A program made the position numbers and the translations under genes. The notes under the pieces were generated by a model that saw nothing but the letters and a program-made list of their open reading frames with translations, did no database searches and was not told where the DNA came from. From Bacilli bacterium (lineage in GTDB: Bacteria > Bacillota_I > Bacilli_A > RF39 > UBA660), in assembly GCA_017936845.1 (NCBI GenBank), contig JAGBES010000025.1:1-63736 (forward strand): a DNA stretch of 63,736 bases, written 5' to 3'. Of the stretch, positions 36,563 to 42,886 are shown piece by piece. Every line of letters starts with the position of its first letter. Within the stretch, counting starts at the first letter, position 1.

Positions 36563-38653
36563 ATGAAAGTTATAATTGCAGAAAAACCTAGTCTTGCTCG
36601 TAATATAGTAGATGCGATAGGTAATATGAAAAAAAATAATGGATATTTTTCTAATAATGATTATATAGTAACATGGGCATTTGGGCATTTGTTTAGTTTA
36701 TATGATATAGAAGATTATGAAAAAAATCCTGATAAGAAGTGGAAAATGGATAATTTACCTTGCTTTCCAGAAAAATTTAAATTTAAATTAAAAGAAGATA
36801 ATAATAAAAAAGTAGATAGCGGAGTATTAAAACAATTTAATATTATTAAAGAATTAATAAATAAGAATGAAGTGGATGCAATTATAAATGCAGGAGATGC
36901 TGATAGAGAAGGAGAAATAATCGTAAGATTATGTATAATTAATGCTTTAAAAAGTAATAAGAAATTACTTAGATTATGGCTTCCTGATCAAACAAAAGAG
37001 ACAATAAATAAAGAATTAACAGAAATGAAAGAAGAAGTAGAATATAATAATTTAGCTAATGAAGGTTTTGCTAGAACATATATTGATTGGTTATATGGCG
37101 TTAATTTAACAAGATATGCAACTTTAAAAACAGGTACTCTAGAAAGAGTTGGTAGAGTAATTATTCCAATTGTAAAAGCTATATATGATAGAGATTTAAG
37201 TATAAGAAACTTTGTCCCAGATATATATTATGGAATATCTAGTAAAGAAGAAACTAATGGCGAAGTAGTAGAATTAAATAGTAAATTAAAATTTGATAAA
37301 AATGATTTAAAAAAAGCACAAGAACAATGTGATAAATATAATAGTTTAAAAGCAGAAGTTATAGATAAAAAGATAAAAAAAGATAAAATGGAACCAGGTA
37401 AATTATATTCTTTATCAAAATTACAAAATGTGCTTGGTAAAAAATATAAAATGTCTATGGATAAATCCCTTTCAATTATCCAAAAATTATATGAAGATGG
37501 ATATTTAACTTATCCACGTACTAATTCAGAGTATTTAGCAACTCCAGAAAAAGATAAAATTAAAACAATTATAAATAATTTAGCTAAATTAAATTATCCA
37601 GTTATTTTTAAAGATAAAAAAACAATATTTGATGATTCTAAAATAGAATCACACTCTGCTTTAACACCTACCTATAAAATACCTGATATAAAAAAACTAA
37701 CAGAAGATGAAAAAATTGTATATAAAACAGTACTTAAAAGATTTATTGCTGTCTTTTGTGATAGAGAATGCTTAGTAGAAAAAACAGAAATAAAAATTAA
37801 ATTAGATGATGAAGAATTTAATTTAAAAGGAACAGTTATCTTGGAACCAGGTTGGACAAAATATGATGATTATAATTCTAAAGATAAAATACTTCCTAAT
37901 TTAAATAAAGGAGATATAATAAATATTGATTTTAAACCTATAGAAAAGAAAACTACAGCTCCTAAACATTATACAATAGAAACACTAAATAATTATTTAA
38001 AAAATCCCTTTAAAGAAGATAAAGCTAAAATAAACCAGGATGAATATGATGATACTGAAGATTATAAAGCAATATTTGAAGGTTTAGAATTAGGAACAGA
38101 AGCAACTCGTACAGGTATAATTGATAATGCAATTAGAAGTGAATATATAAGTTTAAAAAAAGATGTCTATTATATATTACCTAAAGGTGAATATTTAATT
38201 GAATCACTACTTCAAATGGGAATTTCTATGGATAAATATAAAACTAGTGAAATGGGTAAAGCTTTAAAAAAAGTATTTAGAAATGAAATAAAAGTAGAAG
38301 ATTCCGTAGAAATAGCTAAGAAAGAAATAAAAGAAGTATTTAATAAAAAAGAAGTTCCTATTGAAAAAGATACAGATAATGGTTTTTATGGCGATTATAT
38401 TGGAAAGTGTCCTAAATGTGGAAAAGATGTATTAAAAAATAGATATGGTTATGGATGTATAGGTTATAAAGATGGTTGTGATTTTAAAATTAATGGTGTT
38501 ATATGTAAAAGAGTTATTTCTAAAAGTAACGCTGTTAAATTATTAAATGAAGGTAAAACTTCTAAAATAGAAGATTTTATATCAAAAAAAGATACTAAAT
38601 TCAATGCATATTTAGTACTTAAAGATAATAAAATTGAATTTAGTTTTGAGTAA
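36563..38653 (+). CDS. topB: type IA DNA topoisomerase III
   Basis: IAEKPS, GHL, AGDADREGE, TYPRT, LGTEATR; C-terminal Zn ribbon. Confidence 0.9.
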   Translation: MKVIIAEKPSLARNIVDAIGNMKKNNGYFSNNDYIVTWAFGHLFSLYDIEDYEKNPDKKWKMDNLPCFPEKFKFKLKEDNNKKVDSGVLKQFNIIKELINKNEVDAIINAGDADREGEIIVRLCIINALKSNKKLLRLWLPDQTKETINKELTEMKEEVEYNNLANEGFARTYIDWLYGVNLTRYATLKTGTLERVGRVIIPIVKAIYDRDLSIRNFVPDIYYGISSKEETNGEVVELNSKLKFDKNDLKKAQEQCDKYNSLKAEVIDKKIKKDKMEPGKLYSLSKLQNVLGKKYKMSMDKSLSIIQKLYEDGYLTYPRTNSEYLATPEKDKIKTIINNLAKLNYPVIFKDKKTIFDDSKIESHSALTPTYKIPDIKKLTEDEKIVYKTVLKRFIAVFCDRECLVEKTEIKIKLDDEEFNLKGTVILEPGWTKYDDYNSKDKILPNLNKGDIINIDFKPIEKKTTAPKHYTIETLNNYLKNPFKEDKAKINQDEYDDTEDYKAIFEGLELGTEATRTGIIDNAIRSEYISLKKDVYYILPKGEYLIESLLQMGISMDKYKTSEMGKALKKVFRNEIKVEDSVEIAKKEIKEVFNKKEVPIEKDTDNGFYGDYIGKCPKCGKDVLKNRYGYGCIGYKDGCDFKINGVICKRVISKSNAVKLLNEGKTSKIEDFISKKDTKFNAYLVLKDNKIEFSFE

Positions 38654-38706
38654 TTGACATTTATAAAATAAATAGTATAATAAAATAAAATTTAGGGGGA
38701 CTAGTT

Positions 38707-39609
38707 ATGTTTAAAGTATTAAAGGAAAAAATAAAAGATTTGTTAATTAAATCTCAAAGAAAATTAATATTTGAAGAAGCTGCTAATGGCTATATTGGTG
38801 ATTATAAAATACAAGATGATAAAGTAATATGTTATGTAGATAATAAATTGTTAAAAAAATATATGGAAAAAAATCATTATAAATTAGAATTATGTGGTTC
38901 TTATACAATGGAAGAAAAATTAAAAAAAATATGTGATGATTGTGGGATTTTAAAACCAATTTATTATATTATAGATGGAATGGAATTTGCTTCTTATGTA
39001 TATATTTTTTCTGTTAGGGATGCACATATAATTTTTAAAAATTGTACTTTCAAAAATGCTATTAAAATATATTTTGCTAATGATATAATATTTGAAAATA
39101 ATAAATATGAATATCCTTATCCATCAAAAGACTATGCATTTTTAACAAGTAATGGGCCTACCTATAATATAAAATTTATTAATGATAATTTTATAAATAG
39201 TAATAAAAAACATCCAGTAAAATTTGGAATGGAGATTAAAGCTAATAATGTAGAAATAAGTGATACAAATATTAGTGGTGATGATAATTCATTAGTACAA
39301 ATTGAATGTGATAATTTAGTAATTGGAAATTCTAATATAAATTGTGATGAAATAGTTATAAGTTCAAAAAAAATAAATTTTTACGATGCATCAACAAATG
39401 CAAATAAAGGCTTTATAATGAATAAAGATACAATGTATATAGATTTTGATCAAGAAAATAGAAAAGAAAAAGAATTAGAAAATTCAAGAATTAATTTAAT
39501 TAATTCATTAAGAAATTTAAGAGATAAATGTAATCAAGATATAGAAAATAAATTAGAAAATAAAGAAAATAAATTGAAAAATAAGAAAATAAAGAAGTAT
39601 TTTAAATAA
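38707..39609 (+). CDS. hypothetical protein (possible beta-helix region, C-terminal coiled coil, basic tail)
   Basis: TTGACA..TATAAT promoter, GGGGG SD; IIFKNCTF/IIFENN/VEISDTNI repeats; ends KIKKYFK. Confidence 0.7.
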   Translation: MFKVLKEKIKDLLIKSQRKLIFEEAANGYIGDYKIQDDKVICYVDNKLLKKYMEKNHYKLELCGSYTMEEKLKKICDDCGILKPIYYIIDGMEFASYVYIFSVRDAHIIFKNCTFKNAIKIYFANDIIFENNKYEYPYPSKDYAFLTSNGPTYNIKFINDNFINSNKKHPVKFGMEIKANNVEISDTNISGDDNSLVQIECDNLVIGNSNINCDEIVISSKKINFYDASTNANKGFIMNKDTMYIDFDQENRKEKELENSRINLINSLRNLRDKCNQDIENKLENKENKLKNKKIKKYFK

Positions 39610-39626
39610 CATTAAATAATATTATA

Positions 39627-39655
39627 TTGATAAAATAAGTTAAATATGATATTAT
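39627..39655 (+). promoter_or_regulatory. sigma-A promoter of putative antitoxin RNA A
   Basis: TTGATA-N17-TATTAT with extended TG; conserved in copy B. Confidence 0.75.
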
Positions 39656-39661
39656 GTATAT

Positions 39662-39777
39662 AGATGAAGTTATCTTCATAAAATAAAAAGAGGATATACT
39701 TAACTTTCGTGTGGTTAGGTACACTCCTGATTTGGTGTGCACACTAATACTCCAGCTCGAGCGTTAGTGTGCTTTTT
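39662..39777 (+). ncRNA. putative type I antitoxin RNA A (~115 nt)
   Basis: Promoter, 5' hairpin ATGAAG-ttat-CTTCAT, terminator GCACACTAA..TTAGTGTGC-TTTTT abutting the stop codon of the opposite-strand peptide. Confidence 0.65.
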
Positions 39778-39855
39778 CTATTTAAATATTATTACAAATA
39801 CTAATATAAATAGGAGGATAATTATAATAAATTGAGAATTTTCTCTTTTTGTCAT
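39778..39855 (-). CDS. 25-aa hydrophobic peptide A, putative type I toxin (MTKRENSQFIIIILLFILVFVIIFK)
   Basis: AAAGGAGGTGAT SD in a hairpin; own TTGTGT-N17-TATAAT promoter; paralogue at 40830-40907. Confidence 0.78.
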   Translation of the reverse strand: MTKRENSQFIIIILLFILVFVIIFK

Positions 39856-39921
39856 AAATATCACCTCCTTTATTTTTTTATAAAGGAGTGCACCTAACGC
39901 AGGTTATGTATATCCACTAAT

Positions 39922-39950
39922 ATTATAAAAAACAAATGTTTGATACACAA
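39922..39950 (-). promoter_or_regulatory. sigma-A promoter of peptide A mRNA
   Basis: TTGTGT-N17-TATAAT; predicted +1 near 39915, the first base of the long-range helix. Confidence 0.65.
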
Positions 39951-39967
39951 CAGTTTAGGAGTAATTT

Positions 39968-40678
39968 ATGGAAAAAATAGATAAATTAAAAGAAATAATA
40001 AAAAGTAGTAATAATATAGTTTTCTTTGGAGGAGCTGGTGTTTCTACAGAAAGTGGTATACCAGATTTTAGAAGTAAAGATGGTCTTTATAATCAAAAAT
40101 ATGATTATCCTCCAGAAGAAATATTAAGTCATACTTTCTTTTATTATAATACAGAATACTTTTATAAATTTTATAAAGATAAAATGAATAGTCTAAGTAT
40201 TAAACCTAATATAACACATTTAAAATTAAAAGAATTAGAAAAAAATGGTAAATTAAGATGCATTATAACTCAAAATATAGATGGATTAGATATAAAAGCA
40301 GGTAGTAAAAATGTACTTGAAATACATGGTTCAATTTATAGAAACTATTGTACTAAATGTAATAAATTTTATGATGCAGAATATGTTTTTAAAAGTAATG
40401 GAATACCTTTATGTGAATGTGGTGGAATAATAAAACCAGATGTAGTTTTATATGAAGAGCCATTAAATAATACATTTGATGAAGCTATAAATTATATTAG
40501 AAAATGTGATACATTAATAGTTGCTGGTACATCTTTAACAGTTTATCCAGCTGCTTCTTTAATAAGATATTTTAATGGAAAAAATTTAATTTTAATAAAT
40601 AAAGATAAAACTAAATATGATGATTTTGCTACATTGGTGTTTAATCAAAATATGAGTGAAATATTTAAAGAATTATAG
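39968..40678 (+). CDS. cobB: NAD-dependent protein deacylase (sirtuin)
   Basis: GAGVSTESGIPDFRS, TQNIDGL, HGS, CxxC/CxC zinc site, GTSL.VYPAA. Confidence 0.95.
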   Translation: MEKIDKLKEIIKSSNNIVFFGGAGVSTESGIPDFRSKDGLYNQKYDYPPEEILSHTFFYYNTEYFYKFYKDKMNSLSIKPNITHLKLKELEKNGKLRCIITQNIDGLDIKAGSKNVLEIHGSIYRNYCTKCNKFYDAEYVFKSNGIPLCECGGIIKPDVVLYEEPLNNTFDEAINYIRKCDTLIVAGTSLTVYPAASLIRYFNGKNLILINKDKTKYDDFATLVFNQNMSEIFKEL

Positions 40679-40680
40679 TG

Positions 40681-40709
40681 TTGATAAAATATTTAAAATA
40701 TGATATTAT
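40681..40709 (+). promoter_or_regulatory. sigma-A promoter of putative antitoxin RNA B
   Basis: TTGATA-N17-TATTAT with extended TG. Confidence 0.75.
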
Positions 40710-40715
40710 GTATAT

Positions 40716-40828
40716 AGATGAAGCCTTCTTCATAAAATAAAAAAGGATACATTTGACTCTCTGAATCAGATGTTATCCCTTATTGGATTGGCATCTGAAA
40801 TCACAAAGTTGTGAAATCAGATGTTTTT
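40716..40828 (+). ncRNA. putative type I antitoxin RNA B (~113 nt)
   Basis: 5' hairpin ATGAAG-cctt-CTTCAT, terminator GCATCTGA..TCAGATGT-TTTT next to the peptide B stop. Confidence 0.65.
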
Positions 40829-40829
40829 A

Positions 40830-40907
40830 TTATCTATATAGTAAGGTGATTACTATAAAAAATAATAGTATAATTATGATAAATTGAGTTAATTCTCTTT
40901 TTATCAT
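40830..40907 (-). CDS. 25-aa hydrophobic peptide B, putative type I toxin (MIKRELTQFIIIILLFFIVITLLYR)
   Basis: GATGGTGAT SD; same length as peptide A and 14/25 identical. Confidence 0.78.
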   Translation of the reverse strand: MIKRELTQFIIIILLFFIVITLLYR

Positions 40908-41042
40908 AAATATCACCATCTTTCTTTTTCAAGAAAAGGAAAACTTCTGATATTTCAAATGTATCCATTAATATTTATCAAACAAAAATTCGTAAAACAA
41001 TATTTTGATATTAATTTATTAAAAATTTAAAGGAGTAAAAAT

Positions 41043-41867
41043 ATGAATTTTATTGTAAAAGAAGAAATAGAATTATTAGATTTTTTATACAAAAATATTA
41101 ATAAATCTAAAAATAGTATTAAAAACATATTAAAAGATAATACTTATGTAAATGATAAAAAAATTAGTAAATTTAATTATTTATTAAAAGAAAATGATAT
41201 TGTTTCTATTAAAAATAAAATAGATGATATTGAAATAATATATGAAGATAAAGACTTTATAGTTGTTAATAAACCATCTAATTTACTTACAATCGCAACT
41301 AATAAAGAAAAAGAAAAAACTTTATATCATATGGTATCAAATTATATAAAAATAAATAATAAAAATAATAAGATCTTTGTAGTGCATAGATTAGATAAAG
41401 AAACTTCTGGCATAGTAGTATTTTCTAAAAGTGAAGAATTAAAAGAAAAATTACAAAAAGATTGGAATACACTTGTTAAATTAAGAGGATATGTCGCTAT
41501 TGTAGAAGGAAATACTAAAGATGCAGGAACAATAAAATCATATTTAAAAGAGAAAGATATGTATACATATTCTACTAATAGTAAAGATGGGAAACTTGCT
41601 ATTACACATTATAAAAAAATAAAGAGTAATGATAGATATACGATGCTTGATATTAATATAGAAACAGGTAGAAAAAATCAAATAAGAGTTCATTTAAAAG
41701 AAATGGGCAATTTAATTGTTGGTGATAAAAAATATGGTTCAAAAGATAATTCAATTAAAAGAATGGCATTACATGCTAATAAATTAGAATTTTTTAATCC
41801 AAAACAAAAGAAAATGATGAGATTTGAAATAGATATACCAAATAGTTTTAAAAAATTGATAAAGTAA
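41043..41867 (+). CDS. RluA-family pseudouridine synthase
   Basis: VVNKP, VHRLDKETSG, GRKNQIRVH, GDKKYG. Confidence 0.92.
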   Translation: MNFIVKEEIELLDFLYKNINKSKNSIKNILKDNTYVNDKKISKFNYLLKENDIVSIKNKIDDIEIIYEDKDFIVVNKPSNLLTIATNKEKEKTLYHMVSNYIKINNKNNKIFVVHRLDKETSGIVVFSKSEELKEKLQKDWNTLVKLRGYVAIVEGNTKDAGTIKSYLKEKDMYTYSTNSKDGKLAITHYKKIKSNDRYTMLDINIETGRKNQIRVHLKEMGNLIVGDKKYGSKDNSIKRMALHANKLEFFNPKQKKMMRFEIDIPNSFKKLIK

Positions 41868-41913
41868 AAGACAAAATGTCTTTTTTTTGTTATAATTTTA
41901 AGTAGGTGATTTG

Positions 41914-42886
41914 ATGTTTAAAATTGGAAATATCGAAATAAAAAATAATGTTGTTTTAGCACCTATGGCAGGTATTTGTAATCATGCCTATAGAACTATT
42001 ATAAAGGAAATGAAAGCAGGACTTATATATGCAGAGATGGTTAGTGATAAAGCTATAAGTTATGGTTCAAAAAAAACAATAGATATGCTTTATATGACAG
42101 ATAATGAACGACCAATTGCTCAACAAATATTTGGTAGCGATAAAGAATCGTTTGTAAAAGCAGCTAAATATATAGAGTCAAATATGCATCCAGATATTAT
42201 AGATATTAATATGGGTTGTCCAGTACCTAAAGTAGCTTTAAAGTCACAAGCAGGTAGTGCATTACTTAAAAATCCAGAAAAAGTTTATGAAATAGTTTCT
42301 GCTGTTGTAGAAAGTGTAAATTTACCAGTAACAGTTAAGATTAGAAGCGGATGGGACTCAGGTAGTATTAATGCAGTAGAAATAGCTAAGATAGTAGAAA
42401 AAGCTGGAGCAAGTGCGATTACAGTTCATCCAAGAACTAGATCACAAGGATATAGTGGTAAAGCCGATTGGAATATTATAAAAGATGTAAAAGAAAATGT
42501 AAGTATTCCAGTAATTGGAAATGGAGATATAAAAAGTTGTTATGATGCTAAAAGAATGTTAGATGAAACAGGTTGTGATGCCATTATGATAGGTAGAGGA
42601 GCACTTGGTAATCCTTGGCTTATTAAAGAATGTGTTGAATACTTAGAAGATGGTATCATACCTAAAACAATATCAAATGAAGAAAAATTAAAAATGATAT
42701 TACATCATTTAGACTTACTTAAAGATTTAAAAAATAGCAAAGTTGCTTTACTTGAAATGAGAAGTCATGCAGCTTGGTATTTAAAAGGAATACCTAATAC
42801 AGCAAAACTAAAAGAAGATATTTTTAAAACAAAAACAGTAGAAGAATTTAAAGAATTAATTAGTAATTTCTTAAAGGAGGGGTCTT

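Follow-up and report, generated by a model that had tools for sequence, protein, structure and literature searches.

An end-to-end helix kept by covariation in the toxin mRNAs of a putative multi-copy type I toxin-antitoxin family from small-genome Bacilli

In the 63,736-nucleotide (nt) stretch of a Bacilli bacterium genome considered here (GenBank assembly GCA_017936845.1, contig JAGBES010000025.1, forward strand; the whole stretch is referred to as the window), two directly oriented loci, copies A and B, encode a short peptide on the minus strand and a predicted antisense RNA on the plus strand. The predicted peptide mRNA is closed from end to end by a two-part helix (P1 and P2), which is kept by compensatory changes across about 100 loci. 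This 5'-3' helix is among the better-supported RNA helices that can be obtained from sequence alone. As one explanation of the whole set of features, it is probable, though by no means certain, that copies A and B belong to a multi-copy type I toxin-antitoxin family not described before, with a two-part end-closing helix, and that their mechanism is most like the bsrG/SR4 switch of Bacillus subtilis and involves no new principle. The predicted loci represent a new family of a known kind, its structural twist being a terminator arm shared with P1.

On the minus strand, each copy displays the same order of elements, i.e., promoter, P1 arm, P2 arm, Shine-Dalgarno sequence (SD), an open reading frame (ORF) of 25 codons, a post-stop hairpin, the P2 and P1 3' arms, and a U-tract (Table 1). 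The mature toxin mRNA is predicted to be ~215-245 nt long; P1 joins approximately the first 12 nt of this RNA to the 12 nt that directly precede the U-tract, and P2 comprises the next ~15 base pairs inward.

The End-to-End Helix

The pairings described for both copies in an earlier note on this DNA were recovered exactly: in copy A, 12/13 Watson-Crick pairs in P1 and 14/15 in P2; in copy B, 12/12 and 13/16, respectively. As also noted there, an A.C mismatch on the plus strand becomes a G.U pair on the minus strand, once per inner helix (P2) in both copies. The minus-strand RNA of copy A (39915-39680) folds at -76.2 kcal/mol (z-score -10.4) and that of copy B (40966-40734) at -71.7 kcal/mol (z-score -8.7); each is better than 200/200 shuffles, and both helices are present in each minimum free energy (MFE) structure. 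The local hairpin covering the SD of copy A was confirmed as well (Table 1).

The two MFE folds have a further element in common, namely, pairing of the start-codon region with ORF codons ~8-12 (in copy A, 39845-39868 with 39815-39830, minus strand), and a start-codon hairpin recurs, by eye, in other classes of loci. In the MFE fold of copy A, the GGAGG of the SD pairs with a CCUCC inside the ORF; by eye, this pairing is not kept across classes in the alignment, and no claim of a family feature is made for it.

The proposal that the pairing persists while the sequences diverge was borne out by RNAalifold on alignments of the homologous loci, which were collected in two ways. For set 1, a hidden Markov model of the conserved 3' module gave 60 nhmmer hits in the fetched loci, three of which were dropped for missing upstream sequence, leaving 57 evaluable. 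In 47 of them, the last 48 nt before the U-tract form a two-part duplex of -27 kcal/mol or stronger with a site 214-248 nt upstream. Since these 47 loci were selected by pairing energy, the count is biased, and the ten weak loci were therefore inspected: eight are orphan antisense genes, one (L088) is degraded, and one (L071) has an intact ORF and no helix. A structure-blind MAFFT alignment of the 47 helix loci submitted to RNAalifold returned a consensus consisting of the long-range helix only, with 19 pairs, 18 of them showing compensatory changes. In this helix, 92.4% of the alignment cells are paired vs. 28-42% after a shift of the partner by 1-3 columns, and the cells with double changes number 193 vs. 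56 in shuffles (0/500 shuffles as high).

Set 2 was chosen by promoter motif only, i.e., a 21-nt motif from the antisense promoter region, which occurs in 99 further stretches of the species-representative genome collection, 80 of which were taken up; after nine matches without a T-run and five with short upstream sequence were dropped, 68 loci were left. The threshold of -27 kcal/mol was reached in 54/68 of them (median -32.8 kcal/mol), and in 1/64 when the same 3' arm was set against the next 170 nt upstream (median -14.7 kcal/mol). In the 53 loci of set 2 whose ORF is intact, the -10 box and not the pairing defined the 5' ends. Their MAFFT alignment again gave the long-range helix only (17 pairs, 96.5% paired vs. 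30-48% after sliding). The two sets overlap by at least four identical loci. Many of the helix columns carry three or more pair types.

The helix goes together with the intact reading frame: it is found in 92/96 loci with an intact ORF (the other four reach -18 to -26.6 kcal/mol) vs. 9/29 loci without one. The pairing is also locus-specific, cognate arm pairs having a median of -33.9 kcal/mol vs. -17.2 kcal/mol between sequence clusters. This comparison relied on medians only, as ungapped identity over-splits the 5' arms into 50 clusters, which explains why the cognate arm beats all other clusters in only 39/97 loci.

The peptide-mRNA strand is favored, in agreement with the earlier note. In set 1, 38/47 loci have the stronger duplex on the toxin strand, and two have it on the opposite strand. 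The helix pairs of set 1 read on the toxin strand comprise 1210 Watson-Crick pairs, 88 G.U pairs, and four single A.C mismatches; in set 2, 111 G.U pairs were counted vs. eight A.C mismatches.

Ends of the Toxin mRNA

A -10 box matching at least 5/6 positions lies upstream of the helix in 84/97 loci and ends 6-8 nt before the first paired base in 73/84; in copy A, the helix starts 7 nt after TATAAT (39922-39927). This spacing indicates that the helix begins at or next to the predicted +1, as had been suggested for copies A and B. The promoter scan by itself was not above chance (15 sites vs. 18.7 expected), and the promoters are considered credible because their position and sequence are conserved across the loci.

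At the other end, the U-tract follows the P1 3' arm after 0-2 nt in 45/47 helix loci of set 1 (the other gaps are 5 and 10 nt) with a median of nine T in ten, again as anticipated from the two copies; in copy A, the arm stops 2 nt before the tract. Termination at the hairpin directly after the stop codon, the opposing case named in the earlier note, finds no support in the sequence, since none of the 97 loci shows a T-rich tract behind this hairpin on the toxin strand.

The P2 3' arm can also pair with the P1 3' arm, yielding a local hairpin which adjoins the U-tract (median -8.7 kcal/mol; copy A, -9.0 kcal/mol; copy B, -14.9 kcal/mol, z-score -3.9). In 18/47 loci, it attains -8 kcal/mol or lower, with no more than 2 nt between its closing pair and the U-tract. 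A terminator-like hairpin in this place means that a long-range terminator is not required. When the local hairpin is compared with its complement, the antisense strand has the stronger version in 34/47 loci and the toxin strand in three. In equilibrium folding, the long-range structure prevails: a median of 14.5 kcal/mol is lost if no pair may span more than 150 nt, and the median probability that the P1 3' arm is paired to the first 45 nt is 0.91. P2 is predicted to have formed before the P1 3' arm exists (P >0.8 in 75/97 loci).

From these predictions, a rather speculative reading arises, in which the mRNA's 5' end would itself be the upstream half of its terminator. Early formation of P2 would deprive the local terminator hairpin of its partner, so that P1 would snap shut at the U-tract, its arms, ~200 nt apart, being held together by P2. 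The weakness of the local hairpin on the toxin strand, where the long-range duplex is the stronger one, favors this reading; we nevertheless regard it as unlikely on balance. If it holds true, one folding event would terminate the transcript, protect its two ends, and release the anti-SD, and the 5' untranslated region (UTR) of the toxin mRNA, a near-copy of the second stem-loop (SL2) of the antitoxin, would be an internal competitor directed at the same 3' target as the antitoxin.

Antisense RNA and Insulation of the Copies

A conserved plus-strand promoter, TTGATA-17-TGnTATTAT (10/12 matches), points into the toxin 3' UTR. The RNA predicted to start from it is ~120 nt long and consists of a 5' hairpin, a middle hairpin complementary to the toxin 3' arms, and a terminator; the latter is the complement of the toxin post-stop hairpin and has a U-tract of its own behind it. 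In copy A, this RNA overlaps the toxin 3' UTR (39680-39777, minus strand). The toxin 5' arms are, in turn, near-copies of SL2 of the antisense gene. The 3' arm of the helix lies under the predicted antisense RNA, and the competition with this RNA that was proposed earlier fits the arrangement.

The suggestion that divergence insulates copy A from copy B was likewise upheld in silico: the cognate antisense/3' UTR duplexes reach approximately -170 to -185 kcal/mol and the A/B cross-duplexes approximately -35 to -40 kcal/mol. Over all copies in the genome of origin, the ranges are -164 to -185 kcal/mol for cognate and -20 to -47 kcal/mol for non-cognate duplexes. Only copy B and the C2a copy deviate (-138 and -141 kcal/mol); they are predicted to have a common specificity and would thus cross-react.

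Accessibility of the Ribosome-Binding Site

The effect of the helix on the SD was evaluated by comparing three states of the mRNA: full-length; cut at the stop codon; and full-length with pairing prohibited throughout the 3' UTR, to mimic an antisense RNA bound there. For the 6-nt SD, the median opening cost is 4.7 kcal/mol in the full-length RNA vs. 7.9 kcal/mol in both the cut and the 3'-UTR-blocked states; the cost is lower in the full-length RNA in 37/47 loci and higher in four. Opening the whole region from the SD to the AUG costs a median of 10.5 kcal/mol in the full-length RNA vs. 12.7 kcal/mol. Pairing of the SD to the 5' UTR upon blocking of the 3' UTR rises by more than 0.2 in 31/94 loci and falls in six. 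Per-base unpaired probability was also tried as a measure of an SD switch and rejected, as it was essentially unchanged between the states; only the opening energy supports a switch.

According to the folding models, blocking of the 3' UTR thus has a modest family-wide effect on the SD, a tightening of ~3 kcal/mol, and none of the states is predicted to leave the SD free; a switch in SD accessibility is partly supported in this sense. The stronger statement that only the full-length mRNA is translatable does not follow, given the medians of 4.7 and 10.5 kcal/mol still to be paid in the full-length fold.

A median of 17 nt separates the end of the helix from the SD, and the median probability that the SD pairs with the 3' UTR is 0.00 (94 loci). 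Capture of the anti-SD by the helix, which the earlier note took as the core of the switch, describes copy A and its class well: the value for pairing of the SD with helix bases is 0.86 in copy A and 0.84 in another copy from the same genome, own_C2b. It does not extend to copy B and most of the other loci (see below). Therefore, the property conserved in the family, as read from the alignments, is the helix itself and not the capture of the anti-SD.

Relation to Known Type I Systems

Long-distance 5'-3' interactions are described as standard features of type I toxin mRNAs (PMC8594479). In the bsrG mRNA of B. subtilis, nt 1-35 are reported to pair with nt 232-262 in helix P1; binding of SR4 to the 3' part of bsrG leaves nt 1-33 single-stranded, the stem sequestering the SD grows from 4 to 8 base pairs, and translation falls (PMC3834814). 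According to this account, bsrG/SR4 and the family have in common a small hydrophobic toxin, an antisense RNA over the 3' part of the toxin mRNA, an antisense 5' stem-loop not complementary to the target, a long 5'-3' helix enclosing the SD and the ORF, and sequestration of the SD even in the free mRNA. Tightening of the SD stem was shown for bsrG/SR4, whereas here it is predicted only and depends on the class of the locus.

The family differs from the system described for bsrG in the architecture of the 3' end. In bsrG, a separate terminator stem-loop (nt 263-296) follows P1, whereas in the family, the P1 3' arm abuts the U-tract directly and is also used as the 3' arm by the only terminator-like hairpin. 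The toxins are somewhat smaller (23-37 amino acids vs. 38 in BsrG), and no sequence relationship to bsrG/SR4 was detected by matches in Rfam, Pfam, or NCBIfam. Unlike bsrG/SR4, the family is chromosomal and multi-copy, residing in uncultured Bacilli with small genomes. As compared by description only, the bsrE/SR5 pair (BsrE-G-H/as-Bsr group, T1TAdb; PMC6562991) is also similar in its 3'-overlap layout, its bsrG-like fold, and the size of its toxin (BsrE, 30 amino acids).

In the hok and aapA mRNAs, the 3' element is described as an anti-SD, the full-length RNA is inert, and trimming of the 3' end activates it (PMC6733600). The published descriptions of hok/Sok (fbi-tac pairing) and aapA/IsoA of Helicobacter pylori resemble the family in that a 5'-3' interaction replaces co-transcriptional local hairpins, and the long-distance interaction of aapA is, as here, backed by covariation. 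Unlike in these systems, where the antisense RNA is described at the 5' or ribosome-binding-site side, the antisense gene of the family is located at the toxin 3' end and covers the 3' arms; the SD lies outside the helix, and the anti-SD, where present, belongs to the 5' arm. Thus, the logic is indeed opposite to that of hok/aapA, as had been proposed, but it is not new, since it was shown experimentally for bsrG/SR4 (PMC3834814). Overall, the earlier note was right on the strand, the pairing partners, and the antisense competition, and it overstated the translatability and the novelty of the logic, so its reading is partly supported.

Proposed Mechanism and Alternative Explanations

A type I toxin-antitoxin pair with bsrG/SR4-like logic would operate as follows. 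During transcription, the toxin 5' UTR would fold locally and help to cover the SD. Transcription would stop at the U-tract, the stem there being formed either by the two 3' arms as a local hairpin or by P1. The finished RNA would settle into P1 and P2, predicted to be ~14 kcal/mol more stable than the local folds, and its paired ends would be protected. The antisense RNA, perfectly complementary to the 3' arms and nearly the same as the 5' arms, would then displace the latter; the long antisense duplex would be a likely substrate of RNase III. The freed 5' arm would tighten the structure over the SD, strongly in the copy A class and weakly in the copy B class.

Several points weigh against this explanation. 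All the energies are equilibrium predictions, and the loci are related, so that the counts and p-values overstate their independence. The SD is mostly paired in either state (unpaired fraction 0.18 vs. 0.16). It pairs with helix bases at three or more of its six bases in only 7/94 loci and at two or more in 16/94; the corresponding pairing value is below 0.1 in 47/94 loci and 0.00 in copy B. In set 1, L071 is the only clear case of an intact ORF without the helix. Finally, in bsrE/SR5, reported to have a bsrG-like fold, the SD is described as unchanged on SR5 binding (PMC6562991), which suggests that an end-to-end helix need not control translation.

This last point leads to the alternative that fares best, which we consider possible but clearly less probable than the explanation set out above. 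Accordingly, the helix would have a housekeeping function only: it would shield the ends against exonucleases, set the position of the 3' end, and restrict or time the access of the antisense RNA to its target, with no role in ribosome binding; the local hairpins at the SD and the start codon would by themselves keep translation low. The geometry of a helix running from the predicted +1 to the U-tract is that expected for end protection, the SD is sequestered in both states, and in about half of the loci, copy B included, its partner does not overlap with the helix; the report on bsrE/SR5 (PMC6562991) goes in the same direction. Against a purely protective role stand the finding that, in 37/47 loci, the SD is more costly to open once the 3' UTR is blocked, the location of the anti-SD inside P2 in the copy A class and own_C2b (0.86 and 0.84), and the translational effect described for bsrG/SR4 (PMC3834814).

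A lock of the hok/aapA type, in which the helix would keep the full-length mRNA inert until nucleolytic trimming of one of its ends, seems improbable. Locking 5'-3' interactions are the textbook case in the accounts of these systems (PMC6733600, PMC8594479), and a median of 10.5 kcal/mol is still needed to open the region from the SD to the AUG in the full-length fold. However, the SD lies outside the helix and virtually does not pair with the 3' UTR, the 3' arm of copy A carries an SD-like AGGAG and not an anti-SD, removal of the 3' arms raises rather than lowers the predicted cost of opening the SD, and the antisense RNA overlaps the 3' UTR and not the 5' region. Least of all can the helix be expected to be a DNA-level inverted repeat lacking an RNA function (ends of a mobile cassette or gene-converted arms): although the loci are multi-copy, sometimes tandem, and often degraded, with 5' arms nearly copied from SL2 of the antisense gene, such a repeat would show no strand bias, contrary to the excess of G.U over A.C (88:4 and 111:8) and the stronger toxin-strand duplex (38/47 vs. 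2), the helix is kept with an intact ORF and mostly lost without it, the neighbors are housekeeping genes, and the plasmid and phage collections searched in the distant mode gave no match.

Distribution, Decay, and Significance of the Family

Six copies were found in the 1.12-Mb genome of origin, and the end-to-end helix is present in the MFE structure of all six, including one with a TGA at codon 4 and one with a frameshift; weaker matches in the same genome on contigs C16, C9, and C3 were rejected as not being loci of the toxin-antitoxin family. The DNA of copy A has matches in 32/61 genomes searched (its own included), among them 25/36 other genomes from the host's family, which are all 0.8-1.3 Mb in size. 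Overall, ~100 distinct loci were recovered from metagenome-assembled genomes (MAGs) of related small-genome Bacilli. The sources of the set-2 motif are mostly MAGs of uncultured Bacilli bacteria, together with some designated Mycoplasma sp. CAG:611, Tenericutes, and Erysipelotrichaceae. A full-text literature search on type I toxin-antitoxin pairs in RF39, the bacterial group of the host, found no paper.

The family peptides are 23-37 amino acids long, with N termini rich in K/R and a hydrophobic core of the membrane type. A GGAGG-type SD lies 5-11 nt upstream of the ORF in 44/47 loci, and the remaining three contain a premature stop or a frameshift. An Rfam scan of positions 38500-42000 at E up to 1 gave no matches, and four peptides submitted to Pfam and NCBIfam gave none at the cut-off, only sub-threshold matches to unrelated entries. 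These databases possess models for Bacillus type I toxins and antitoxins.

The toxin ORF is inactivated in 3/47 helix-bearing loci, in all of which the helix and the antisense gene are kept: by a TGA at codon 4 in L004 (G000 C2:21138-21370, plus strand), a frameshift after codon 10 in L005 (C29:61155-61386, minus strand), and a TAA at codon 5 in L067 (414-655). In the orphan or degraded loci L038, L047, L094, L084, L075, L096, L077, and L097, the antisense gene and the 3' arms are kept, and the 5' half of the toxin gene or all of it is deleted. Decay of the toxin first is the pattern expected if prior loss of the antitoxin is lethal. Inactivated toxins and orphan antisense genes thus provide indirect hints that the peptide may be toxic and neutralized by the RNA.

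Tandem arrays are frequent in the relatives: L166 has three motif matches ~355 nt apart, L031 includes three loci, and L041 and L097 include two each. L071 (G001:C5:9600-10600, module at ~533, minus strand) is a natural chimera with an intact ORF, MKKRESSLFIIILLLFFIVITLLYR, having the 5' UTR and the first codons from one class and the rest of the ORF and the 3' UTR from the class of copy B; this origin accounts for the loss of the 5'-3' helix (-18 kcal/mol). One contig assembled from an RNA run (window positions 39821-40950) joins an A-like ORF region to a B-like 5' UTR via 37 letters resembling the 5' UTR of another class. Rather than a true rearrangement, this contig probably represents a related locus from a strain present alongside, or paralogues that were joined during assembly. 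No RNA data set was listed for positions 39560-41060; of two RNA runs carrying the same species label, one yielded 0 reads and the other 1 partly fitting read, which is too little to bear on expression.

The loci described here add a large unannotated, putative type I toxin-antitoxin family found in uncultured gut Bacilli with small genomes. In Bacillus, the bsrG-type helix rests on probing of single RNAs; the ~100 diverged loci offer unusually clean covariation support for an end-to-end helix of this type. They also represent a natural test set, with the anti-SD inside the helix in the A class vs. outside in the B class and with a shared terminator arm. The differences between the classes could help to separate the roles of the helix in stability, termination, antitoxin access, and translation. 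For annotation, six copies reside in seemingly "empty" intergenic gaps of a ~1.1-Mb genome.

Layout of the Two Loci

The features of copies A and B are compiled in Table 1. The toxin promoter block of copy A is common to both copies, judging by sequence conservation.

Table 1. Predicted features of copies A and B (window coordinates).
Feature	Position	Strand	Remarks
Copy A, toxin promoter-like site (predicted)	39922-39950	-	TTGTGT (39945-39950), 17-nt spacer, TATAAT (39922-39927)
Copy A, P1 5' arm	39903-39915	-	Starts at predicted +1; partner 39692-39704; in MFE; covaries across loci
Copy A, P2 5' arm	39884-39898	-	3' end CUCCU = anti-SD; partner 39714-39728; overlaps SD hairpin
Copy A, SD-sequestering local hairpin (alternative to P2)	39865-39888	-	9 pairs; centroid structure of first 70 nt
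Copy A, SD GGAGGU (39863-39868) and ORF MTKRENSQFIIIILLFILVFVIIFK	39778-39868	-	ATG 39855 to stop 39778
Copy A, post-stop hairpin	39739-39772	both	Plus strand with TTTTTCT = antisense terminator; minus strand without U-tract
Copy A, P2 3' arm	39714-39728	-	Contains SD-like AGGAG
Copy A, P1 3' arm and U-tract TTTTTATTTT	39692-39704 and 39680-39689	-	Predicted mRNA 3' end
Copy A, antisense (antitoxin) promoter (predicted)	39627-39655	+	TTGATA-17-TGnTATTAT
Copy A, antisense RNA (predicted)	~39662-39781	+	SL1 39663-39679; SL2 complement of toxin 3' arms; terminator SL3
Copy B, P1 5' arm and P2 5' arm	40955-40966 and 40936-40951	-	In MFE
Copy B, weak SD region GAUGGUGA (40913-40920) and ORF MIKRELTQFIIIILLFFIVITLLYR	40830-40920	-	ATG 40907 to stop 40830
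Copy B, post-stop hairpin	40792-40823	both	Plus strand: antisense terminator
Copy B, P2 3' arm, P1 3' arm, and U-tract	40765-40780, 40745-40756, and 40734-40744	-	
Copy B, antisense promoter and RNA (predicted)	40681-40709 and ~40716-40833	+	Three stem-loops

The genes neighboring the two copies are of the housekeeping kind and include those for topoisomerase, pseudouridine synthase, and Dus. A 300-amino-acid ORF (38707-39609, plus strand), which belongs to no Pfam family at E up to 1e-5, is situated directly upstream of the copy A antisense promoter. A SIR2-family gene (39968-40678, plus strand; Pfam E 5e-52) lies exactly between the two toxin-antitoxin copies.

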